In this document: positions 1,833 to 47,338 of the stretch, piece by piece
Numbering within the stretch: position 1 is the stretch's first letter
Layout: each line of letters starts with the position of its first letter
DNA from: Fidelibacterota bacterium
GTDB lineage: Bacteria; Fidelibacterota; Marinisomatia; SCGC-AAA003-L08; JACNLC01
Direction of reading: 5' to 3'
Assembly (NCBI GenBank): GCA_018657495.1
Contig: JABHXA010000001.1
Coordinates: forward strand, 122,016-186,015
DNA: 64,000 bases
Notes under the pieces: generated by a model
What the model was told of the DNA's origin: nothing
What the model saw: only the letters and a program-made list of their open reading frames with translations
Databases searched by the model: none
Program-made: the position numbers and the translations under genes

Positions 1833-3074
1833 TCAAATGGTCAGATTACTCAACGCTTGTTCAGTTTGTGTAACTCGAGCATTTGCCTCGATAAATTGAA
1901 ACTCCTTAAGGGCAGATTGATAGTTTTCTACTGACAGATCTCTATTTCCTGTATCCTCATAGAATTTTCCAATTTCCAGGTAAGTTTCGCCGAGATTAAG
2001 ATGATTATTATCTTCCTTATTTATCCGTTTACTATTTTCATAGTAGGACATGGCAACATTAAAATTCTTTCCTTTTCGATTGATCAATCCTAATATCTTA
2101 TAAACCTCAGCTATTTCGGATTTTGCTTGTAATTCAGAAAATATTTGAAATGTCGTCATTACCAATGCATTACTTTCAGATAATTCTCCCATTCTTGCTT
2201 TCACCTCTGACTGTTCCAGATAGGATAATCCTTTCTGATATACATCATTATTCTCTTTAGCAAGTTTAATGCATTTTGTCAGGTAAGCACTTGCCTTCCC
2301 GTAGTCTTGTTTTATTTTGTAGTTAATGGCAATATTATGCAGTAGCCTTGCTCGCTGTCTTGGATTATCCTTTGATTTTAGAATATCAAGAGCACTTTGA
2401 TAATAACCCATCGATTCATCAAAATCCCCTAATTGGCTACAGACATTTCCTAGATTGGAAAATATTTGGACCTTTAGAAAATGGTTATCATGTTGACTTG
2501 ACATCTGCTGAGCCTCAAGAAAGATGAGTTTTCCTTCAGACGGCTGTCCATTATTAACTTGTATCACCCCAAAAGCAATTTTGTTCTGGAGAATCCCAAA
2601 AGAGTCATTTTCCTTTTTAAAGAGCAATGTACTTTTATTTAGATACTTTATCGAACTATCAGAATCCCCATTATTAAAACAAATATTGGAAAGAGTTCTG
2701 AACGATTTTGCCACCAAAATATTATCTGCATCTTTATTTTTGGTAATTTCTATTAAAAGATTCGTTGCTTTTGTGAATTGAGCATATTTAATAGATACTT
2801 TTGCCAATTTATTAATAAGCTGTAGATACACTTTGATATCGCTAATAAAATGTTTAGAATGTGTAATGATTGTATCAAAATCAATTTCTTTGAAAATGAT
2901 TTTTTTCATGCCGGGCATTTTTTCAGATTTTGGAATTTCCTTCCAGGAATTATTCAATATTCTTTCTCGTTCTCTTTTGATATACAAAAATTGATCTGAA
3001 AATTCCTGTGTGCATTTTTCAACTGTAAGTTGAAATACTTCTTTTAGAAATGACTGTAGTGTTTTATTGGTCAT
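1833..3074 (-). CDS. tetratricopeptide (TPR) repeat protein
   Basis: 413-aa ORF with many repeats of the A/Y/L-rich 34-aa TPR pattern (e.g. LGNVCSQLGDFDESMGYYQSALDI, LHNIAINYKIKQDYGKASAYLTKCIKLA). No enzymatic motif seen. Confidence 0.7.
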   Translation of the reverse strand: MTNKTLQSFLKEVFQLTVEKCTQEFSDQFLYIKRERERILNNSWKEIPKSEKMPGMKKIIFKEIDFDTIITHSKHFISDIKVYLQLINKLAKVSIKYAQFTKATNLLIEITKNKDADNILVAKSFRTLSNICFNNGDSDSSIKYLNKSTLLFKKENDSFGILQNKIAFGVIQVNNGQPSEGKLIFLEAQQMSSQHDNHFLKVQIFSNLGNVCSQLGDFDESMGYYQSALDILKSKDNPRQRARLLHNIAINYKIKQDYGKASAYLTKCIKLAKENNDVYQKGLSYLEQSEVKARMGELSESNALVMTTFQIFSELQAKSEIAEVYKILGLINRKGKNFNVAMSYYENSKRINKEDNNHLNLGETYLEIGKFYEDTGNRDLSVENYQSALKEFQFIEANARVTQTEQALSNLTI

Positions 3075-7029: not shown

Positions 7030-7898
7030 AGTATTAAACCAAGAACAAATAGTATGCTGTAGACCATCATCACTCTTGCAGTGCCCCCCAGAATGGGATA
7101 TAATTCCCTCCCTTCAAGGGTCCATACCGATATAGTCATTTTTACAGCCACGGGTATTGAGAAGAGATACAGGTACATGGATAAATCGTTTTTCCAGGTG
7201 ACTGCCAATACTGCCGGGATGAAATATGAAATCACCATCATAAGGCTATATTCTAAACGACCGAATAGTTTTCCCCATCTGACAACAAGAGTTCTTTTCC
7301 CCGTTTTCGTATCTGTTTCCACGTCGCGAAGATTATTAACCACAAGGATTGCAGTTGAAAATGTTCCCATGGAAAAACCAACAAGCAATGATTCGATTGA
7401 GATCATTCCGGTTTGCAGATAGTAAGTACCAGGTACAGCGATAAGTCCAAAAAATACAATTACAAATATATCACCCCAACCATGATAACCAAGGGGATAA
7501 GGTCCACCTGTATAGGCAATCCCAGCTGCAATGGATGCCAAACCAATCCACACGATGGGCCAACCACCGATATATACTAGATAAGTACCGGCAGCAAGAG
7601 CCAAACTGAAAGTGATAATCATGCCATTTTTCACCTGGGTAGTGGATAACAATCCCGACTGAGTGACCCTGGCCGGACCGATCCGTTCAGAGGTATCGGT
7701 TCCGTTGAGAAAATCAAAAAGATCATTGGCAAGATTTGTACCAATTTGAATTAACATGGCAGCAATCAATGTAATCAAACCAGTGTTCCAATGAGATATG
7801 CCGTCATGGAATGCTAATGCCACACCAAGCATCACCGGCGCAATTGCTGCAGGTAATGTTTTTGGTCGAGATGCCAGTATCCAGTATTTAATTTTCAT
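7026..7898 (-). CDS. menA: 1,4-dihydroxy-2-naphthoate polyprenyltransferase (UbiA family)
   Basis: 290-aa polytopic membrane protein with the UbiA Asp-rich motifs NLANDLFDFLNGTD and NNLRDVETD. Men-cluster context. Confidence 0.85.
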   Translation of the reverse strand: MKIKYWILASRPKTLPAAIAPVMLGVALAFHDGISHWNTGLITLIAAMLIQIGTNLANDLFDFLNGTDTSERIGPARVTQSGLLSTTQVKNGMIITFSLALAAGTYLVYIGGWPIVWIGLASIAAGIAYTGGPYPLGYHGWGDIFVIVFFGLIAVPGTYYLQTGMISIESLLVGFSMGTFSTAILVVNNLRDVETDTKTGKRTLVVRWGKLFGRLEYSLMMVISYFIPAVLAVTWKNDLSMYLYLFSIPVAVKMTISVWTLEGRELYPILGGTARVMMVYSILFVLGLIL

Positions 7899-35857: not shown

Positions 35858-38800
35858 TTAAAAATCAAGTCCAATTGTTAGATACCACATCCTCTTAGTT
35901 TTTTCATGAGGGATATATTCCCATGCATAATCCAGTTGCCAGGGCATACCCAGAAAAATGAATCGAGGTCCAAAGCCATATGTTAAAACAAAATCCTGCG
36001 GGTGGGAGTCCCAGCTGTTTCCTTCCCACATATCCGGTCTTTTATCACTCCATGCCATACCAAAGTCTGTAAATAATACACCGTTGATTTGACCAAAATA
36101 CTTGATAGTTGGGAAATAGTATAAAAGAAATGGCGTTCGTAATTCAAGGTTTATGACGACTGCCTTGTTGCCATATAATTCATTGATTTGTGCCCCTCTC
36201 ACCGGCATTACATATTTTGTGAAGAATATTTCTTTTAAATTGTCCTCTGAGTAATCTTCATACAGTTCATCAAAATTGGCATAGTAAGTATCTTCAGAAG
36301 AAAATAACCAGGGTAGTCCGCCAACACGAAATATTTCAGCATTTTTGCCCTGGCTATATCCAGCATATAGTCTGGCCCCAATACTTACCCCGTTTCCAAG
36401 GGGGATATAATGTCTTGCATCGATACTGAAAGTTTGAAATTCTAAACTGTTACTTTTGTTACCTGGGCTTATCTGGTATCGAAAATAGACTCTGTCGCCA
36501 TCTATCGGGTAAAGATAACTCCAAATTGTATTGTCCCATATTAAACCGAAGGTAGGCATGATTGATTTGATCGAATTTATCTTTTGTTCTTCAAATTCAA
36601 TATAACCAGAATTATTGCTAATTGGTATTATCATGGTCTGTTCAGCATAGGCATATTCTAGCCCATATTCGAAACGATTGAATCGGGAAAAGGGTCTTGA
36701 TGCCAACACTTCTAATGCTAGTTTCCTTAACCTCACCAAAAAACTGCCCTGTTGCTGATTAATGGTGGAATTATGTGAAAACATAAAGTTAATATCTGTT
36801 CTCATGGGTAAATATCGATACATGAAAAAATAATCTGAGTTTTTTAATGAGATATCATTCATTTCAGTACTGAGTAATATTTTATGATCACCAAGCAAAT
36901 CGCTCCACAGAAAATATGCCATCATCTGAGGATTATACTGCGCACTGTAATTATAATAAGGCTGTATCAAGTCTAAAGTGAATCTGGTTTTATATCTATA
37001 CTTGCGGAAAGTACCCGTAGTATCTTTTGTATCCTCATTCGTTAGTTCAATTTCAGGTTTTTCTTCAAGTTTTATACTGTTGAAATTATTAAAAACATAG
37101 TTTTCATAACTTACAGAGGGTTGATATTTTTCCTTATTATCCTCCCTGATCAATAATTTTTGTGGATCTATATCCCGTGATGTTACCCACTTCGCCGGTG
37201 GGATGCTTATGTTATCATTTCTTTTATCTTTTGGATTATCAATAGTAAAGATGTCATAACCACCATCCTCAAAACCTGAGCAAATCAGCTGTGTATCATC
37301 CCGACTCCATGAAAGTTGTGAGACACCGGTTAGAATATTTGTAATTGGGAATGAAGAATCTAACGAGTCACTTAGTAAATAAATATTATTTATCCCTGAT
37401 TCATCTGAAATATAGGCGAGATACTGTCCATCAAACGACATTGTAGGATAAGATTCAATAAATGGCGTGTTGGTAATTCTGGTAATATGAGATCCATCTC
37501 TGGTTATAGAGTAAATATCGGCCTGGTCTACTGGGTATTCTTCTATCATTTCTTCCACAGATGTGTCAAGATGATCACCGCGGTCAGAAATAAAATACAG
37601 CGATTTTCCATCAGGTGACCAGGAAACCATATCATCAGTAAACCAATCATTTGTCAAATTGGTGAGTTCCTCAGTTTCAATATCAAAAATATAAATATCA
37701 CTTGTGATGCCGTCATTTCCAATAAATGCAATTTCATCCTTCACGGGATTCCAGGTAGCCCTGAATATACCTTCCATCCCAAAACGATACTTTCGACTTT
37801 CTTCAGTCTTGTGATCTACAATAAATAAAGCATCAGATTTTCCAGATTTGGCTGGGAATGCCAGTCTGTCTCCATTTGGTGACCAGGTAATCCCTGGTTT
37901 TAAAATATGCAATTCTTCATATTCTGCATTCCTCTCACCCTGGATAATTTTTTTAATAAATACACCGTCTTCAGTTGCCAGCAGGTATATTGCCATTTGT
38001 CCATCTTTATTGGATATAATTGCCATTTGCTTACCATCAGGGGAAAGGGCTGGAGAGATATTATAGGTGTTTCCTAATTTCTCGTGGTCGGTCAATTTTC
38101 TGGCGATATCCTGTAAGCTTTCTCTTCCTTCAATATCCGGCCAGTATTGTTTCTTTAAATACTTATGCCATTGTTCAGTTAACTCATCTATGTCCACCCC
38201 GAGAGAGTTTTCAATTCCTTTTTCAACATTATTTTTTCTTTTGATTTGAGTGAAAACCTCGGCGATGACTTCATCACCCCACTTATCAGTAATAAATTTC
38301 CAGACTGACTGACCACCTCTATAGGCCCAGTACCCGCCTAACATATTGATATTTGGGAGATCACCACCATTTATGGCAAGATCTCTCAGCCACATATCCG
38401 AATTTGTGTCCCAACCGCTTGCCAGGTACTCGGCAAGACCTTCATTCATCCAGCCGGGTATCTGGAATTTAATAGTACTGTTTAACAAAGACTGAAGGTT
38501 TCCACCATAAATATTGTCATTGATAAACGCATGAACAAGTTCATGATGAATAACATGGGCAAATTGTTTGTGGGATCCATCATATGGAATAACAACCCGA
38601 TTTTTGAATAATTCTGTAACCCCTCCGATGCCTTCGTACATGTAGGAATCAATTACATTTGTCTGTTGAAAACCATTATGTGAGTTATAAATAATAATTG
38701 ATACTCTTTCCTGCAAATCCCCGAGCAACCTTGTAGATATATTTACATAGGCTTTTTCGGCTTCAATGGCGGCAAATTCTGCATGGGAGTATCCGTCTTC

Positions 38801-38944
38801 AGAAAAATAAATATCGAAATGTGCCGATTTTATAAAACTCCAGGTAAAACCATCATATTGAACAATATTTTGACCAAACTGACCGAAGATTTTTGACGAC
38901 AATACAATTAAAAAGAGGAAAAGCGTTTTATTATACATTTTCAT
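35858..38944 (-). CDS. large outer-membrane protein: N-terminal HExxH (gluzincin-like) domain + TolB-like PD40 beta-propeller + C-terminal Omp85-like beta-barrel
   Basis: 1028 aa with the following parts:
- a signal peptide;
- HHELVHAF ... WMNEGLAEY, i.e. HExxH plus a downstream Glu;
- at least 6 PD40-type repeats (SPDGKQMAIISNKDG, SPNGDRLAF, SPDGKSLYFISDRGD, SFDGQYLAYISDESG and others);
- about 400 aa of amphipathic beta-strands ending in the OMP C-terminal signature ..YLTIGLDF. Confidence 0.65.
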   Translation of the reverse strand: MKMYNKTLFLFLIVLSSKIFGQFGQNIVQYDGFTWSFIKSAHFDIYFSEDGYSHAEFAAIEAEKAYVNISTRLLGDLQERVSIIIYNSHNGFQQTNVIDSYMYEGIGGVTELFKNRVVIPYDGSHKQFAHVIHHELVHAFINDNIYGGNLQSLLNSTIKFQIPGWMNEGLAEYLASGWDTNSDMWLRDLAINGGDLPNINMLGGYWAYRGGQSVWKFITDKWGDEVIAEVFTQIKRKNNVEKGIENSLGVDIDELTEQWHKYLKKQYWPDIEGRESLQDIARKLTDHEKLGNTYNISPALSPDGKQMAIISNKDGQMAIYLLATEDGVFIKKIIQGERNAEYEELHILKPGITWSPNGDRLAFPAKSGKSDALFIVDHKTEESRKYRFGMEGIFRATWNPVKDEIAFIGNDGITSDIYIFDIETEELTNLTNDWFTDDMVSWSPDGKSLYFISDRGDHLDTSVEEMIEEYPVDQADIYSITRDGSHITRITNTPFIESYPTMSFDGQYLAYISDESGINNIYLLSDSLDSSFPITNILTGVSQLSWSRDDTQLICSGFEDGGYDIFTIDNPKDKRNDNISIPPAKWVTSRDIDPQKLLIREDNKEKYQPSVSYENYVFNNFNSIKLEEKPEIELTNEDTKDTTGTFRKYRYKTRFTLDLIQPYYNYSAQYNPQMMAYFLWSDLLGDHKILLSTEMNDISLKNSDYFFMYRYLPMRTDINFMFSHNSTINQQQGSFLVRLRKLALEVLASRPFSRFNRFEYGLEYAYAEQTMIIPISNNSGYIEFEEQKINSIKSIMPTFGLIWDNTIWSYLYPIDGDRVYFRYQISPGNKSNSLEFQTFSIDARHYIPLGNGVSIGARLYAGYSQGKNAEIFRVGGLPWLFSSEDTYYANFDELYEDYSEDNLKEIFFTKYVMPVRGAQINELYGNKAVVINLELRTPFLLYYFPTIKYFGQINGVLFTDFGMAWSDKRPDMWEGNSWDSHPQDFVLTYGFGPRFIFLGMPWQLDYAWEYIPHEKTKRMWYLTIGLDF

Positions 38945-41167: not shown

Positions 41168-44100
41168 CTACTTTTCCAACGGTAGTTTTAAATAAAATAT
41201 ATTTCCATTGGGAGTATTGGGTTTAACACCGGTTTTCCCATTATGGGCTTCGCTTATCCGCCTTACAATTGACAGCCCCAGACCTCTTCCCTGTTTTATA
41301 CCTTTCCCTAATTGAATCCCTCGTCTAAAAACTTTTACATAGTCCTTTTTGGGAATAGTCTTACCAAAATCAATGATATTTACAGTAAGGTATTTCTCAT
41401 CCCTCTTGGTTTCAACAATTATTTTTTTACCTGAACTGGCAAATTTTATTGCATTGCTAATAAAGTTTTTGAACACTTCAGATATTATTGGATTATTATT
41501 TATAATCAATTTGTCATGGATTTTTAATTCGATCGTCATCCCAGCCTCCTTCAGTGGAGATTCAAAATCATTGACTACATTTTTCAATAATTCAACCAGA
41601 TCAATACTAATGATATCCAATTGTTCGCCAATAACCATTTTTGACAGGGAGGCGGTATTATCTATTACATTCAATAGGCTTTCACTGCTCTCATGAATAA
41701 TTCTGGCATACTCATTATCAGGATCCTCTGAAATCATGATTTCAGAAATACCTGATAATACTCCGGCAGGGTTCTTCAGGTCGTGGCTTACTACGTCTAG
41801 TAATAGTTCTTTCATTGCATTTGATTCTGCCAAATGTTCAGACAGTTTTTTAAATCTCAACTCAGATTTCTTCATATTTATTTCCTGAGTTTTCCAGTTA
41901 ATTGAAATCGCAATTTGCTCAGCAACAAATGAAACAAATTCTAAGTCGGTTTCATCATACTCATAGGGATTATGATAGCTCTGCAAAACAATGATGCCCA
42001 TTATTTTATTATTTAGCTTTAGAGGTGCTCCAAGCCATATTTGCGGTGGTGTGCCTTTGAGGACAATCTCACCGGATTTTTCCAGTGATTTGATGTTTTC
42101 ATAATAAAGAATCTTTGGTTTCCCTGTTTTGAAGATATATTCAGTAAGCCCTTTTGCAAAAGATCTGCTCTTTGGTTTAGCATCTTTCTCATCTATAAAA
42201 TAGGGGAATTGTATTAACGATTCTTTCTCATCGATTATTGCTATATAAAAATTAGTTGTATCTAATAAAGTACTGAGATGTTTGTGTATTAACTCAAATA
42301 AATTATCATAAGAGATGCTTGTTACAACAGATTGCGAGATTTGCAGCAGTGTTTCTTCTTTTTTCTCTTTATTCTTTAATTCGGTTATATCTCTGATCAC
42401 ACCAAGGAGATATGTTTCTTCAGAGATTTTTATCTTTTTTAAAGTGACATCTGAATCAAACAATGATCTATCTTTACAGGTATGGAGCCATTCAAACCTG
42501 GCTTCTCCAGTTTGATAGGCCGATTTTATAAACGACTCTGAAGATTGATCTGATTGAAGGCCATTTGGCTGAAGTTTGTTTGAGAATAAGAATGGTGAAC
42601 TGCCGATAATATCATCCAATTGACATTTATATAGTTCGAGTGCGCGTCTATTACATTCGATAACCTTGCTTTTCTTGAAAATAAATACTGCATCTGCATT
42701 TGAATTAAAGAGATTTCGATAATAAACCTCGCTATCTTTTAAATCCTGAGCCATCTTCAATCTAGAAGTGATATTTCTGATTATGACTTGAAATGCCATT
42801 TTATCATCAAAAATTATTGGACCTGATGAAACCTCTACTGTGAGTTTCTCGCCTTTTAAATTGATCATTTCTTCTTGAAAAAGGGGAAGAGGTTTTCCGG
42901 TATCTTTCATTTGTAGTATACGATCATTCACAACATCCTTGTAATCAGGATGAATAAATCGTGATATATTCGTTCCAACTAAGCTGCCCATTTCAGGGGC
43001 TCCAACCATTTTTACACCAGCATCATTCACAAATACTATAGTGTTTCCATCGTGAACAATCACGGCGTCCTGAATATTTTCAAAGAGGAATCTATATCTT
43101 TCTTCGCTTCTTCTAAGCCCGAGATAAGCAAGTTTATATTCCGATATATCTGCAAATAAAAATATGGTAGTTGACAAATTCTCCCATTGAATAGGTAGCA
43201 TGTTTATCCGTGCCCATTTCACGCTTTTGTCCCCGCATTCTAATTCGACCTCGATTAACTTTGGAGGGTTGATATCAAATATGGCATTATTTTCCTGCTC
43301 TGAGATGGATTCATGATATTCTTTTTTTATAAAGTCATAAGGTGATTTTCCCAGAATATCCACCTTTTCAAAACCGGTGATATTTGAGGTAATAGAATTT
43401 GAGTAGATGATAATGTTGTCTCTGGATATAAAAACACCCACATCCAGATTTTGGACAAGAAATTTATATTCCGATTCAGAGTTTTTCACTTGAATCTGTC
43501 GTAACATCATAATTCTCAGCATCCATGAAATACAAAAAATGATGATAACACCTAAAATGAGAATAATTTTACTGGACAGCGAGGGAAAATCTTTGGCATC
43601 CGAGGACGGCGAGACATATACCGTCCAAAACCTGTCAAAAACAGGAATGGAGTAACTACCCAAAATTTCCAGAGTTATATTGGGAAGGGGCTGAAAGCTT
43701 TGATATATCTCTTTATTATTATCATCAATATAATAGACAAATTGTTTTAAATCCTGATTCGACAGACAGTATTCTATGATGTCATCGATTCTAAATACTC
43801 CGTTGATATATCCGACAACTTTGTCATCCAAAATTACCGGTAAATATGAAGCATAACCCCATCCACCCTGAAAGAGAGGAATTGGTGGTGTAAATTCCAG
43901 TTTCCCTTCATCGACCGTTTTTGTATAGGTTGCAATTACGGAAGGATCTTGATGATTATAGAGGTTTTTTCCTATAGCGCCACGGTTTGTCGCTTCGGGA
44001 ACAACCCAAATTATAGTACCGGATGTATCTACAAAATTAATTGCCTGGAATCCGCCTTTTGAAAGTAAAATTCGCTCAATAGTAACTGTAAAGTCGTCGT

Positions 44101-44323
44101 AATTATCAAACGGTTTGTTTTCCCATTCCTGCTTCAAACGGTATAATTCATCAATGTGATACCGAATATTATCACTTATTCTAAAGGCTAATTGTTTGGA
44201 AATTGTTGAGGATATCGTCTTGAATTCTAATATATTTCGTTGTTGAAACAACCACCACCCGGTGATAAATACCACCAATAGTATAATATATGTGAAAACT
44301 GGGATTATTACATTTTTCTTCAA
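41168..44323 (-). CDS. multi-sensor histidine kinase (TM - extracytoplasmic sensor - TM - 3x PAS - GAF - HisKA - HATPase_c)
   Basis: 1051 aa. Two TM helices flank a ~230-aa outside domain. PAS-like starts are at SEYKFLVQNLDVGVF, SEERYRFLFENIQDAVIV and SEVYYRNLFNSNADAVFI. There is a GAF-like block, the H-box VVSHDLKNP and the ATP-lid GRGLGLS. Confidence 0.9.
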   Translation of the reverse strand: MKKNVIIPVFTYIILLVVFITGWWLFQQRNILEFKTISSTISKQLAFRISDNIRYHIDELYRLKQEWENKPFDNYDDFTVTIERILLSKGGFQAINFVDTSGTIIWVVPEATNRGAIGKNLYNHQDPSVIATYTKTVDEGKLEFTPPIPLFQGGWGYASYLPVILDDKVVGYINGVFRIDDIIEYCLSNQDLKQFVYYIDDNNKEIYQSFQPLPNITLEILGSYSIPVFDRFWTVYVSPSSDAKDFPSLSSKIILILGVIIIFCISWMLRIMMLRQIQVKNSESEYKFLVQNLDVGVFISRDNIIIYSNSITSNITGFEKVDILGKSPYDFIKKEYHESISEQENNAIFDINPPKLIEVELECGDKSVKWARINMLPIQWENLSTTIFLFADISEYKLAYLGLRRSEERYRFLFENIQDAVIVHDGNTIVFVNDAGVKMVGAPEMGSLVGTNISRFIHPDYKDVVNDRILQMKDTGKPLPLFQEEMINLKGEKLTVEVSSGPIIFDDKMAFQVIIRNITSRLKMAQDLKDSEVYYRNLFNSNADAVFIFKKSKVIECNRRALELYKCQLDDIIGSSPFLFSNKLQPNGLQSDQSSESFIKSAYQTGEARFEWLHTCKDRSLFDSDVTLKKIKISEETYLLGVIRDITELKNKEKKEETLLQISQSVVTSISYDNLFELIHKHLSTLLDTTNFYIAIIDEKESLIQFPYFIDEKDAKPKSRSFAKGLTEYIFKTGKPKILYYENIKSLEKSGEIVLKGTPPQIWLGAPLKLNNKIMGIIVLQSYHNPYEYDETDLEFVSFVAEQIAISINWKTQEINMKKSELRFKKLSEHLAESNAMKELLLDVVSHDLKNPAGVLSGISEIMISEDPDNEYARIIHESSESLLNVIDNTASLSKMVIGEQLDIISIDLVELLKNVVNDFESPLKEAGMTIELKIHDKLIINNNPIISEVFKNFISNAIKFASSGKKIIVETKRDEKYLTVNIIDFGKTIPKKDYVKVFRRGIQLGKGIKQGRGLGLSIVRRISEAHNGKTGVKPNTPNGNIFYLKLPLEK

Positions 44324-44482
44324 AGAAAGTAATTCCGATTAATTATTATTAATTTTGTGGAGAATTCGTTCCTCCAAACTATTATCCCAACCGGGATAAT
44401 CAGAACTATGACAATACATATTAATTAAATCAGACTTTTGTCGTGGTTGTAGTCGAATTCCAAATTCCTTCATATGTGGATA

Positions 44483-45316
44483 TCATTTTAGTTCAAGGAA
44501 ATTTTTGACGGTCCAGGAGATCCAAAAAATAACCAGAAGACCAAAAATGAGTATAATTTTACTGGATAACGATAGTAGTTCTTTTACAGCCCAGGGTGTA
44601 AGAGCAACATAAACTGTCCAGAAGCGATTAAAAACTGGGACAGCATAGCTACCCAAAATTTCTGATGAAATTATTTGTTCAGTTTTGATACTTGAGTAAA
44701 TTTCATTCTGTAAATCGTCTATATAAAATACATATTCTTTAAAACTGCCGCGGGATAAACAATAATTGACTATTTTATCCACACTAAGAACACAATTCAG
44801 ATACCCGGAAATCACACCATCATTTTTTATTGGAAAGAATATGATATATCCATTCCTGTTATTTGAAATCTCGTAAACAGATGAAATGGTAATATCGCCT
44901 GTTTTTCTCGCCAGTGAAAAGGTATCATATAACGCTTGATCAGATGTATCCAACATGTTTGATTGAATACCCCAAATATGACCTTTAGACTCTGATAAAA
45001 AAACAATATTGCCTTCGATATCGATATAATTAATTGAGTGAAAGCCCCCAGTTGAATTCAGTATTTTTTCCACTCTTTCAGAAAATTTCTCTTTTGACTT
45101 TAGAGGTGTATTTTCCCATTCATCTCTAAACACATCCATATTGGATAATTTATGATTAATATTATCCCCAATTCTTAAGGCTACCTGTTCAGATAGGCTG
45201 GTCGCGATATTTCTATGTTCAGAAATATTTCTTTTTTCGAATATCCACCATACAATAATGAGCATTGATGATAGCACAAAATAGAGAAGTATTGGGACAA
45301 TTCTTGATTTTTTCAT
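44483..45316 (-). CDS. stand-alone TM-sensor-TM protein, paralogue of the N-terminal sensor module of the adjacent kinase
   Basis: 277 aa. It is colinear with residues 1-~275 of the 1051-aa kinase: MKKSRIVPIL..WWIFEKRNI vs MKKNVIIPVF..WWLFQQRNI; DEWENTP vs QEWENKP; YVFYIDD vs FVYYIDD; LGSYAVPVFNRFWTVYV vs LGSYSIPVFDRFWTVYV; LSSKIILIFG vs LSSKIILILG. It stops right after TM2. Confidence 0.7.
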   Translation of the reverse strand: MKKSRIVPILLYFVLSSMLIIVWWIFEKRNISEHRNIATSLSEQVALRIGDNINHKLSNMDVFRDEWENTPLKSKEKFSERVEKILNSTGGFHSINYIDIEGNIVFLSESKGHIWGIQSNMLDTSDQALYDTFSLARKTGDITISSVYEISNNRNGYIIFFPIKNDGVISGYLNCVLSVDKIVNYCLSRGSFKEYVFYIDDLQNEIYSSIKTEQIISSEILGSYAVPVFNRFWTVYVALTPWAVKELLSLSSKIILIFGLLVIFWISWTVKNFLELK

Positions 45317-45380: not shown

Positions 45381-46175
45381 CTAATTTACAATAATACCGG
45401 TTATCAAATCAGCAAATTGAGATTTTACTCTTTCTGTAGTTTCAAGTACTTCTAGGTGAGTTAAGGGTTTTGATGAAATACCTGCAGCATAATTTGTCAG
45501 GCAGGATATGCCCAATACTTTTAATCCGAGTTTATCTGCTTCTTCAATTTCAGGTACAGTGGACATTCCAACAGCATCACCACCCAGAGCATGCATATAT
45601 TCGATTTCTGCTGGTGTTTCGTATGTTGGGCCAAGTGTCCAGCAATATTTTCCCTTTCTGATAAGTAATGACTGTGATTTGGCAATATCTTTTGCTTTAA
45701 GCAACAGGTTTTTATCATAGCATAATAATGTATCCATTAATGGGGGATTTGATGATGAATGTCGGAATGTAAAATCGAAATGCCCATCAATAACCATGAG
45801 TTCACCTGTGTTCCAGTCCCTATTCATGCACCCTGCAGCATTGGTGATGATAACAGACTTGCACTGGATATCATGAAATACTCGTAGGGGAAGTGTGACA
45901 GTTTCAATAGAATGTCCCTCGTAATAATGAAACCGGCCGCGAGCACATAGCACAGGTGTATTACCTGCAAAACCAAAAATAAATTCACCTACATGGCCTG
46001 AAACTGATGGCTGAGGGTACTCACTTATTTCACTATATGGCACATTTACCGGATTGGTTAATGTGGATGTAAATTCACTCAAACCAGAACCAAGAATAAT
46101 TGATATCTCTGGTGCTACAGGAATTTTTTTTAGAATATACTCAGCAATATTTTTTGTATCATATTTGTTTTTCAA
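45381..46175 (-). CDS. purine nucleoside phosphorylase (PunA / PNP family 2 trimeric type)
   Basis: 264 aa with ILGSGLS, GRFHYYEGH, VGMSTVPE and TNYAAG. Confidence 0.88.
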   Translation of the reverse strand: MKNKYDTKNIAEYILKKIPVAPEISIILGSGLSEFTSTLTNPVNVPYSEISEYPQPSVSGHVGEFIFGFAGNTPVLCARGRFHYYEGHSIETVTLPLRVFHDIQCKSVIITNAAGCMNRDWNTGELMVIDGHFDFTFRHSSSNPPLMDTLLCYDKNLLLKAKDIAKSQSLLIRKGKYCWTLGPTYETPAEIEYMHALGGDAVGMSTVPEIEEADKLGLKVLGISCLTNYAAGISSKPLTHLEVLETTERVKSQFADLITGIIVN

Positions 46176-46177
46176 AT

Positions 46178-47338
46178 CTACAAATTTTCCTTTTCTTTGT
46201 TATTTACGGCAAGTTGCCCACAGGCAGCATTAATATCTTTGCCCTTACTCCTTCTCACAAGTACACGGTATGTAGTTTGTCTATCGTACAAATATTCTGC
46301 AAACTCTTTAATTTTATCTTCATCGGGTCGATTAAATATCCCACCCATGCTGTTGTATGGAATAAGATTTAGCTTACATTGCACTCCATTTAGCAGTTTA
46401 TGGAGTCGATAAGCATCTTCAATGCTGTCATTTACATTTTTCAGCAAAACATATTCAAACATGACTCGCCTTCTTGGCAGTTCAGAATAGGTCTTTCCAG
46501 CTTTAATTAACTCTTTTATCGGCCATTTGGAATTCAATGGCATAATTTGAGTTCTGGTAATATCATCAGATGCATTCAATGAAATGGCAAGTTTATATTT
46601 TCTATTCTCAGTAATGAACTGGTAAATCCGTGGAAGAATGCCCGCTGTTGAGATGGTAATACGGGTAGATGCAAGATCAAACCCTCTTTGATGGTGGAAA
46701 ATATCGGCGGCATCCATCACCCGTTTATAATTCAGAAATGGTTCACCCATTCCCATAAAAACTATGTTGGTAACCGGTAATGTTGTCTTTCTCATTACCC
46801 ACAATAATTGATCAACAATTTCACCAGTTAGAAGATTTCTGGAGAATCCCATTTTACCTGTAGCACAAAAATCACAATCTACATTGCAACCTATCTGTGT
46901 TGACAGACATACAGTATGCCTCTGTTTTTCGATTATACTTACAGATTCAATGAATTTACTTTCGTGGGTTTTGAATAAATATTTCTGTGTCGATTCCTGA
47001 TTAGATTCGGATACACTTTCCAAGGTTAGCGTTTCAAGGCTGGCATTCAGGGTTAAAAAATCCCTGAAGGACTTTTTTATATTTGACATTTCATCTATAT
47101 TGGTTATGCCATGACGATAAAGCCATTCAAATAGCTGCCCACCTCGATATGCAGATTCACCCTTATCAATACACCATTCCTGTAATTCAGTAAATGTCAT
47201 CCCTTTTATAATGGTGTGATCAGATGAAATATTTTTTTTTAGTGGTGCAATCTTGCCCTGTTCAATCGATATACTGTTCATCATGCGAATATTACATGAA
47301 TTTTTTACGATACAGCAAGAATTTTTCATGGTTAACAA
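46178..47338 (-). CDS. rlmN: 23S rRNA/tRNA (adenine-C2)-methyltransferase RlmN (radical SAM)
   Basis: The motifs are YRGGQLFEWLY, the radical-SAM cluster CNVDCDFCATG, GMGEP and the C-terminal CGQL. The true start may be an internal Met (MMNSIS.., about 47284). Confidence 0.9.
   Translation of the reverse strand: MLTMKNSCCIVKNSCNIRMMNSISIEQGKIAPLKKNISSDHTIIKGMTFTELQEWCIDKGESAYRGGQLFEWLYRHGITNIDEMSNIKKSFRDFLTLNASLETLTLESVSESNQESTQKYLFKTHESKFIESVSIIEKQRHTVCLSTQIGCNVDCDFCATGKMGFSRNLLTGEIVDQLLWVMRKTTLPVTNIVFMGMGEPFLNYKRVMDAADIFHHQRGFDLASTRITISTAGILPRIYQFITENRKYKLAISLNASDDITRTQIMPLNSKWPIKELIKAGKTYSELPRRRVMFEYVLLKNVNDSIEDAYRLHKLLNGVQCKLNLIPYNSMGGIFNRPDEDKIKEFAEYLYDRQTTYRVLVRRSKGKDINAACGQLAVNNKEKENL

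Follow-up and report, generated by a model that had tools for sequence, protein, structure and literature searches.

Introduction

Sensor domains of the CHASE family (PF03924), such as those of Xanthomonas PcrK and the plant AHK4 cytokinin sensors, comprise a stalk helix and two PAS-like lobes set between two transmembrane (TM) helices. They are rarely found without an output domain: in a survey of 1214 CHASE proteins, 1173 had a known one (in 607 a kinase, in 549 a c-di-GMP enzyme, in a few something else) (PMC4822843). Periplasmic sensor modules that lack an output domain are also on record. SMP_2, a Pfam family related to the DUF2222 sensor of BarA/GacS, is a Cache-superfamily module of this kind (PMC4822843); it is a DUF2222-like family, not a CHASE one, it belongs to Proteobacteria, and its kinship to a kinase sensor is visible only by profile comparison. 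In B. anthracis, SkiA (pXO2-0075/pXO2-61) and pXO1-118 are, according to PMC5862856, which cites White et al. 2006, stand-alone paralogues of the sensor domain of the sporulation kinase BA2291. Their over-expression suppresses sporulation in a BA2291-dependent manner, and titration of an activating signal is the proposed mechanism. In this report, we analyze a 64,000-nucleotide stretch of a Fidelibacterota genome (GenBank assembly GCA_018657495.1, contig JABHXA010000001.1, positions 122,016 to 186,015), referred to as a whole as “the window”. A 277-residue protein made up of a TM-sensor-TM module is encoded there immediately upstream of a histidine kinase that opens with a homologous input module. 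We find that the stand-alone gene in all likelihood arose by tandem duplication of the 5′ part of the kinase gene and has been retained, and we propose that its product may modulate the kinase.

Two other systems show how a kinase can be controlled by a second protein. In one, a membrane receptor of the Cache type without an output domain is encoded beside its kinase; this Cache-HAMP (CHH) receptor docks through a cytoplasmic HAMP domain, and its partner, a Ser/Thr kinase, is no paralogue of it and lacks a sensor (bioRxiv 10.64898/2026.05.25.727664). In the other, RetS/GacS, a kinase homodimer is replaced by a heteromer and signalling is blocked (PMC8498467), although RetS is a full hybrid kinase that acts via its cytoplasmic DHp domain, not a sensor-only paralogue. 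CHH and RetS-GacS show that kinases can be controlled in trans and by heteromers, albeit through cytoplasmic domains that are absent from the protein described here.

The locus in the window departs from these systems in several respects. In contrast to the remote kinship of SMP_2, the stand-alone copy adjoins its parent gene, and its product is 39% identical to the parental module or, in a relative in which the footprint of the duplication is still visible, 84%. To our knowledge, SMP_2 genes are not adjacent to barA. Like SkiA and pXO1-118, the protein is a stand-alone paralogue of the sensor of one histidine kinase. However, those proteins have a globin-type fold, are plasmid-encoded and are distant from the kinase gene, whereas the protein in the window has a CHASE/dCache-type fold, is anchored by both TM helices, is encoded on the chromosome next to its kinase and has lost its presumed ligand-pocket signature. 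It differs from CHASE receptors in having no output domain and in scoring too low for the Pfam models of CHASE and of dCache_1.

Results

An output-less paralogue of the kinase input module

On the minus strand of the window, a gene of the purine nucleoside phosphorylase (PNP) family is followed by the 277-aa ORF, a 159-nt spacer, the histidine kinase and then a response regulator (RR) that consists of a REC domain only. The coordinates given in a preliminary description for the 277-aa ORF and the 1051-aa kinase were reproduced, and the single-domain RR that it mentions is present (Table 1). The sensor module is present in just two copies in the window, namely the stand-alone protein and the N-terminus of the kinase. 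BLASTP aligns the two colinearly, from residue 1 to residue 271 of the stand-alone protein and 270 of the kinase, with 105 identities in 271 positions (39%), 62% positives, one gap and an E value of 7e-61. The colinearity with the first ~275 kinase residues that had been noticed by eye is thus far beyond chance, and the blocks listed with it (WW.F..RNI, EWEN.P, Y.DD...EIY, LGSY..PVF.RFWTVYV and LSSKIILI.G) are found in both proteins.

Hydropathy reveals two TM segments in the stand-alone protein, at about residues 6-26 and 246-272, the first of them behind a short N-terminus (MKKSR) that is basic and lies in the cytoplasm. In an AlphaFold2 model (mean pLDDT 82), TM1 leads into a long stalk helix that is followed by distal and proximal PAS-like lobes and TM2. 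The best matches to this model that Foldseek finds in the Protein Data Bank are the sensor domains of KinD (E 2e-8), PcrK (a CHASE domain; E 2e-7), CqsR and Mlp24. Hydropathy, model and structural matches all conform to the CHASE layout of two TM helices around a long N-terminal helix and two PAS-like lobes. The ORF stops ~5-8 residues past TM2 without a transmitter, as had been described, and a stop just past TM2 is common to the stand-alone copies of four lineages. The protein therefore has a cytoplasmic N-terminus, a periplasmic sensor of ~220 residues and a cytoplasmic tail of only ~5-8 residues. With such a tail it cannot signal by itself, and any contact with a partner must be made in the membrane or in the periplasm, unlike the HAMP-mediated docking of the CHH receptor. 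What it lacks of the CHASE family's architecture is the role of N-terminal input to a cytoplasmic output domain.

At the level of Pfam models, the two copies fare differently. The kinase module scores 31.2 bits against CHASE, above the cut-off of 25, and the stand-alone ORF has no CHASE match at E <= 0.1. Its score against dCache_1 (PF02743), 31.1 bits, is under the cut-off of 45, and the signature residues of the CHASE-family distal lobe are missing from it (see below). Given its 39% identity to the CHASE module of the kinase, the stand-alone ORF is CHASE-derived by descent, with a sequence that now lies outside the Pfam model. Database names for the protein follow both affinities: “cache domain-containing protein” at NCBI and “sensor domain CHASE-containing protein” at JGI. 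The ORF has no match to Pfam SMP_2 at E <= 0.1. It shares with SMP_2 the character of an output-less Cache-superfamily module derived from a kinase sensor, but it arose independently and is to be seen as an analogue, outside that family.

Retention of the stand-alone gene

The window (W), which belongs to a metagenome-assembled genome of a marine Candidatus Marinimicrobia (Neomarinimicrobiota) bacterium, was compared with related loci from Marinimicrobia (L001, L003, L009, L013 and L014) and with L010, which comes from a soil or sediment metagenome. The ratio dN/dS (omega) was estimated by the method of Nei and Gojobori (NG86) between the window and L001, the stand-alone proteins of which are 88% identical, at a dS of ~1.0. 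It is 0.058 for the stand-alone ORF, on a par with the RR (0.060) and with both the sensor (0.067) and the remainder (0.068) of the kinase; for PNP it is 0.11. Purifying selection on the short ORF is thus strong. Its product shares 100% identity with P0001, a protein present in 129 contigs; every full-length member of its 90% cluster is exactly 277 aa long, and the length is 276-277 aa in four lineages (W, L013, L001 and L003), down to 44% identity. Neither stops nor frameshifts were found in the gene in these four lineages or in the 129 contigs of the window's own species. The stand-alone gene therefore bears no mark of a pseudogene, neither a dN/dS near 1 nor stops, frameshifts or a length that differs among relatives.

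The arrangement of the two genes is conserved as well, in L001, L013 and L003. The order PNP, stand-alone gene, kinase, RR recurs in L001 and in L013, the stand-alone protein of the latter being 91% identical to that of the window. In L003, the stand-alone protein has 276 aa and is 44% identical, and the gene downstream of it opens with the same TM-sensor N-terminus (the contig, of 1.6 kb, ends 110 codons into this gene). A full-length second kinase occupies the position of the stand-alone gene in none of the relatives. The stand-alone copies of the window and L003 are reciprocally closest, being 44% identical to each other versus 31-32% to any kinase N-terminus; the downstream gene of L003 is 38% identical to the window kinase, 32% to the short ORFs and 29% to L003's own short ORF. 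Further, the clade of window-type stand-alone copies has 100% bootstrap support. These facts imply that the duplication predates the W, L001, L013 and L003 lineages. The argument that an intact but diverged ORF has been retained rather than left to decay was made in the preliminary description, and it is borne out by the low dN/dS, the fixed length and a gene order conserved to 44% identity. We conclude that the stand-alone ORF, to judge from its sequence evolution, is a retained functional gene and not a remnant.

Divergence from the kinase sensor

A profile search of 1.84 billion representatives returned 1,989 proteins with the sensor module. The best 150 were examined, and nearly all of these are 500-1750 aa long with the module at the N-terminus. 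A family hidden Markov model (HMM) was built from 102 members outside Marinimicrobia, in which 31 columns are conserved at >=80%. Kinase N-termini score 262-270 bits against it (window kinase, 263), compared with 143-191 bits for the stand-alone copies (window, 185). At the 31 conserved columns, the consensus residue is kept 26-28 times by the kinases (28 by that of the window), 17 times by the window-type stand-alone copies and 13 times by the L003 copy. The losses in the distal lobe affect P108 (100% conserved), N112 (98%), A115, Q149-G150-G151 and F174, in the numbering of the short ORF.

The two lobes have diverged in opposite ways. In the distal lobe, identity is 67-69% between deep kinase orthologues, 38% between deep stand-alone orthologues and 23-27% between old paralogues of the same genome. 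The corresponding values for the proximal core and TM2 are 45-51%, 72% and 57-62%. The pattern of constraint is thus inverted: kinases conserve the distal lobe most, and stand-alone copies the proximal lobe and TM2. Between close orthologues, the distal lobe is nevertheless the most constrained part of the short copy (omega 0.035). The similarity of the paralogues in the proximal core and TM2 does not stem from recent gene conversion. Their synonymous sites there are saturated (pS 0.72, with 43% identity at third positions), and paralogue identity shows no consistent excess within genomes over that between genomes. The saturation indicates that the similarity reflects constraint on the protein.

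Origin of the stand-alone gene

A search with the sensor module of the kinase uncovered a second stand-alone gene, at L014. Its product, P0167, is a 288-aa “CHASE domain-containing protein”, and the locus is syntenic with that of the window, in the order MoxR, RlmN, PNP, 288-aa stand-alone gene, 1057-aa kinase, RR. P0167 is 84% identical to the N-terminus of its own kinase and 33% identical to the short ORF of the window, to which the L014 kinase N-terminus is also 33% identical. Positions 7865..9875 of L014 form a tandem repeat with a unit of ~1,010 nt (86% nucleotide identity) that consists of the intergenic region and the first 288 codons of the kinase. From the PNP stop-codon region, the unit extends to a point 12 codons past TM2 of the kinase, and the new gene terminates at a stop codon that lines up with the copy of the PNP stop region. 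A TGGTT match at the repeat junction might be microhomology.

This footprint is that of a simple partial tandem duplication, and a whole second kinase need never have existed. The suggestion that the window's ORF is the surviving 5′ part of a duplicated kinase was therefore sound as regards duplication, but a full second kinase is not needed: ~1 kb was duplicated in L014, and the spacer of the window holds no remnant of a kinase. In a tblastn search of the whole kinase against positions 44300..44560, only chance-level matches appeared, the best non-trivial one being MKEFGIRLQPRQKSDLI against kinase residues 924-940 (E about 9). Unlike in L014, no residual homology that would mark the duplication was found between the two intergenic regions of the window. 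The stand-alone ORF of the window, too, in all probability arose by tandem duplication of the 5′ part of the kinase gene.

The L014 copies are at an early stage of divergence, with a dS of 0.33 and an omega of 0.24 for the pair. When polarised with L009 and the window kinase, derived changes number 20 in the stand-alone copy versus 11 in the kinase copy. Those in the stand-alone copy include G92D, G117E, A118S, G155E and G156E (GG to DG, GA to ES, QGG to QEE), which hit the signature motifs lost in the old copies. The TM helices and the stalk remain 82-93% identical between the L014 stand-alone protein and its kinase.

L009 (GCA_046861405.1) has no stand-alone gene: the kinase directly follows PNP across a 107-nt intergenic region (2534..2640). 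This locus groups with L014, with 67% identity in the kinase sensor and 75% in PNP, and represents either the unduplicated state or a loss. In trees of the sensor modules, the L014 stand-alone protein pairs with the N-terminus of its own kinase (80-100% support) within an L009/L014 group (84-100%). With gamma-corrected distances, the old stand-alone clade joins the window-type kinases (83-89%). With uncorrected distances it falls outside all kinases (97%), as is expected from long-branch attraction. Where L009 falls with respect to the old duplication varies with the correction applied to the distances.

Searches for further stand-alone sensors

Short database entries with this module are often not what they seem. 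Among the candidates considered, P0113 is a kinase with a frameshift, P0119 and P0152 are cut short where a PAS domain begins, P0130 lies at a contig end, and P0092 is a singleton beside a truncated gene. The 288-aa “stand-alone CHASE” protein of L010 (175..1523) is part of a kinase split by a frameshift, with an overlapping ORF downstream that begins midway through a PAS domain; database counts of stand-alone sensors should be made with this in mind. No verified second case outside Marinimicrobia was found among the 150 best of the 1,989 profile matches. A scan of metagenomes yielded one locus, and a third protein search no new lineage. In each of two pattern scans of contigs of GTDB species representatives, 62 stretches matched, none of which encodes a relative. 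Metagenome-assembled genomes at NCBI (e.g., GCA_018651535.1) carry the gene despite these blank scans; perhaps the locus is absent from the representatives of these species, or masked in them.

Other features of the window

The features of the locus are collected in Table 1.

Table 1. Coordinates of the stand-alone gene, its kinase and their neighbours in the window
Feature	Position	Strand	Remarks
PNP-family gene	45381..46175	-	Conserved upstream neighbour of the stand-alone gene; in L014, the duplicated unit has its left edge in the stop-codon region of this gene
Stand-alone TM-sensor-TM gene, 277 aa + stop	44483..45316	-	Output-less paralogue of the input module of the adjacent kinase
TM1 of the stand-alone protein, ~residues 6-26	45239..45301	-	Kyte-Doolittle windows >1.6 at residues 3-28; helix 3-69 in the AlphaFold2 model
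Membrane-distal PAS-like lobe, residues 91-178 of the stand-alone protein	44783..45046	-	23% identity to kinase; family signature residues lost; omega 0.035
Membrane-proximal core and TM2, residues 219-272 of the stand-alone protein	44501..44662	-	62% identity to kinase; 72% between deep stand-alone orthologues
Spacer between stand-alone gene and kinase, 159 nt	44324..44482	-	5′ ~75 nt conserved in close relatives
44-codon spacer ORF	44339..44473	-	Probably no gene
Kinase input module, residues 1-275 (TM1, CHASE-type sensor, TM2)	43499..44323	-	Parent and paralogue of the stand-alone gene; CHASE 31.2 bits
Histidine kinase, 1051 aa, TTG start	41168..44323	-	CHASE, three PAS, GAF, HisKA, HATPase_c
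RR, REC only, 123 aa	40778..41149	-	18 nt downstream of the kinase

The spacer had been described as 160 bp long and as containing a 44-codon ORF of uncertain reality. The ORF is present and the spacer measures 159 nt, but the ORF is not supported as a gene. Only its first ~18 codons are conserved, after which the sequence diverges and the lengths vary (44, 35 and 43 aa in three close relatives). Its omega is 0.37, it is absent in L003 and L014, and it has no Pfam match. These facts rule it out as a conserved gene, and most likely it is not a gene at all. The first ~18 codons (MKEFGI[RQ]L[QP]PRQ..DLI) coincide with the 5′ 75 nt of the spacer (44410..44482 in the window), which are near-identical in the window, L013 and L001, and no more conserved than the region between PNP and the short gene. 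It may have a regulatory function particular to this lineage, or it may encode a leader peptide. An Rfam scan of the spacer gave no match at E <= 1, and no terminator-like site was found in it when intrinsic terminators were sought.

The TTG start of the kinase (TTG AAG AAA AAT, encoding M K K N) is kept in four lineages, at 44321..44323 of the window, 8991 of L001, 1269 of L003 and 5994 of L013. The kinases of L009 and L014 and every stand-alone copy start with ATG. The difference may mean that translation is initiated less often on the kinase gene than on the stand-alone copy.

Two neighbours merit a brief remark. A 1028-aa ORF (35858..38944, minus strand) has orthologues with Pfam matches to Peptidase_MA_2, a Tricorn/PD40 beta-propeller and a C-terminal Omp85 barrel; it is unusual for a protease or propeller to be fused to an outer-membrane barrel, and the arrangement is kept at all syntenic loci. 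An RlmN-family radical-SAM gene lies at 46178..47338 (minus strand). Its start calls vary by assembly (363-386 aa), and the longest ORF in the window begins at TTG and is probably over-extended.

Discussion

We propose, with about as much confidence as doubt, that the stand-alone protein is a modulator of the truncated-receptor type, or a co-sensor, of the adjacent kinase. The sequence comparisons lead us to this proposal; that the two proteins associate physically, and with what sign of effect, is something that we infer. The stand-alone protein would associate in the membrane with the full-length kinase through its proximal lobe and TM2 and, in part, TM1, and this association would alter the output of the kinase. 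In one version of the model, the resulting complexes would have only one DHp/CA arm and signalling would be damped; in another, the re-modelled distal lobe would sense a second cue and feed it in. The L014 pair suggests how this could begin. Sensor kinases of this type are dimers, and, given TM helices and a stalk that are 82-93% identical, co-assembly of a newborn copy with its parent seems hard to avoid. Such a heteromer, having one DHp/CA arm, would amount to paralogue interference. Later, the proximal lobe and TM2 would be kept and the pocket signature lost, and a new constraint on the distal lobe would follow. The combination of these three features in the window's copy fits a modulator or second-input subunit better than a decoy for the same ligand.

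The alternatives concern both the history of the gene and its role. The ORF could be a non-functional remnant, the decaying 5′ end of a duplicated kinase gene. The duplication origin is compatible with this, as are the lineage without a copy (L009) and the artefactual nature of most short matches across the family, such as the frameshifted kinase of L010. For the window's gene, however, an omega of 0.058 at a dS of ~1, an intact frame of identical length and a duplication older than the split at 44% identity leave this explanation very improbable, and the selection test refutes it. The young copy of L014 makes a weaker case against decay, with a frame intact at a dS of 0.33 and an omega of 0.24. 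As to history, the sequence data speak for two duplications that occurred independently, L009 having remained in the unduplicated state. A single ancient duplication would require that whole-unit gene conversion produced the 84% identity in L014 and that L009 lost its copy, and we think this unlikely. Tandem paralogues do convert, the uncorrected trees put the window-type copies outside all kinases (97%), and the copies of both lineages share a similar position between PNP and kinase and an end point within ~10 residues past TM2. Yet the L014 repeat has the footprint of a simple tandem event that spans the intergenic region from the PNP stop, its stand-alone protein bears no trace of window-type ancestry (being 33% identical to the window's short ORF, just as its kinase is), the sister lineage L009 has no copy, and the gamma-corrected trees place the window-type copies with the window-type kinases (83-89%).

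As to role, the protein could be an independent receptor-like or scaffold protein, whose distal lobe binds something and which acts on another membrane partner or an envelope structure instead of through the kinase. A distal lobe that is constrained (omega 0.035) yet 23% identical to that of the kinase would suit such a role, as would the diverged stalk helix, and SMP_2, a cut-off Cache-clan module assumed to have a role of its own, sets a precedent (PMC4822843). We nonetheless judge it unlikely, although it is the strongest rival of the modulator reading. Wherever the gene occurs among these lineages, down to 44% identity, it lies next to the kinase on the same strand; its most kinase-like region is the proximal lobe with TM2; and a tail of ~5-8 residues leaves it no evident means of inward signalling other than a membrane partner. 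Less probable still, and decidedly improbable, is a decoy that binds the kinase's ligand and titrates it, as proposed for SkiA. The same fold and common origin would allow this, and SkiA is a precedent (PMC5862856). On the other hand, the loss of the presumed pocket signature argues against simple titration of the SkiA type, since near-invariant distal-lobe residues that the kinases keep are lost in old and young copies alike. In addition, a membrane-anchored binder that faces seawater would be a poor sink for a diffusible ligand.

Several observations weigh against modulation of the kinase by its paralogue. Such sensors usually dimerise through the stalk helix, which has diverged to 35-37% identity between the old paralogues; the ability to heterodimerise may therefore have been lost. 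The similarity in the proximal lobe and TM2 could come from shared structural constraint, or from an old conversion whose synonymous trace has been erased. In L009, the kinase stands alone at the same locus, which means that there, at least, it needs no partner. Finally, the available lineages number five or six, and all are from metagenomes.

The general idea of a stand-alone sensor paralogue already has precedents in SMP_2 and SkiA, the organism is uncultured, and it is from comparative data that we infer a function. What raises the locus above the routine is the apparently repeated birth of such a gene at one place, together with the parallel loss of the same conserved residues. Tentatively, and with less assurance than for the modulator role itself, these genes may represent truncated-receptor isoforms encoded as separate genes. 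Such a gene would be born by a partial duplication of ~1 kb, its product would co-assemble with the parent, selection would preserve the contact made by the membrane-proximal part and TM2 and remove the pocket signature, and the product would end as a dedicated negative regulator or a second-input subunit; in Marinimicrobia, this would have happened at least twice, independently, at one locus. For annotation, the lesson is that short “Cache/CHASE domain-containing proteins” beside kinases are not necessarily fragments.

How histidine kinases are controlled by extracytoplasmic sensors, and how new inputs are added to their pathways, is poorly understood. The absence of a copy in L009, the young copy of L014 (84% identical to its kinase) and the old copy of the window (39%) form a comparative series for paralogue interference, and for how it is resolved, in a membrane receptor. 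If the proposal is true, a sensor-only paralogue beside its parent would be a simple, genetically encoded means of tuning or gating a kinase from outside the cell.

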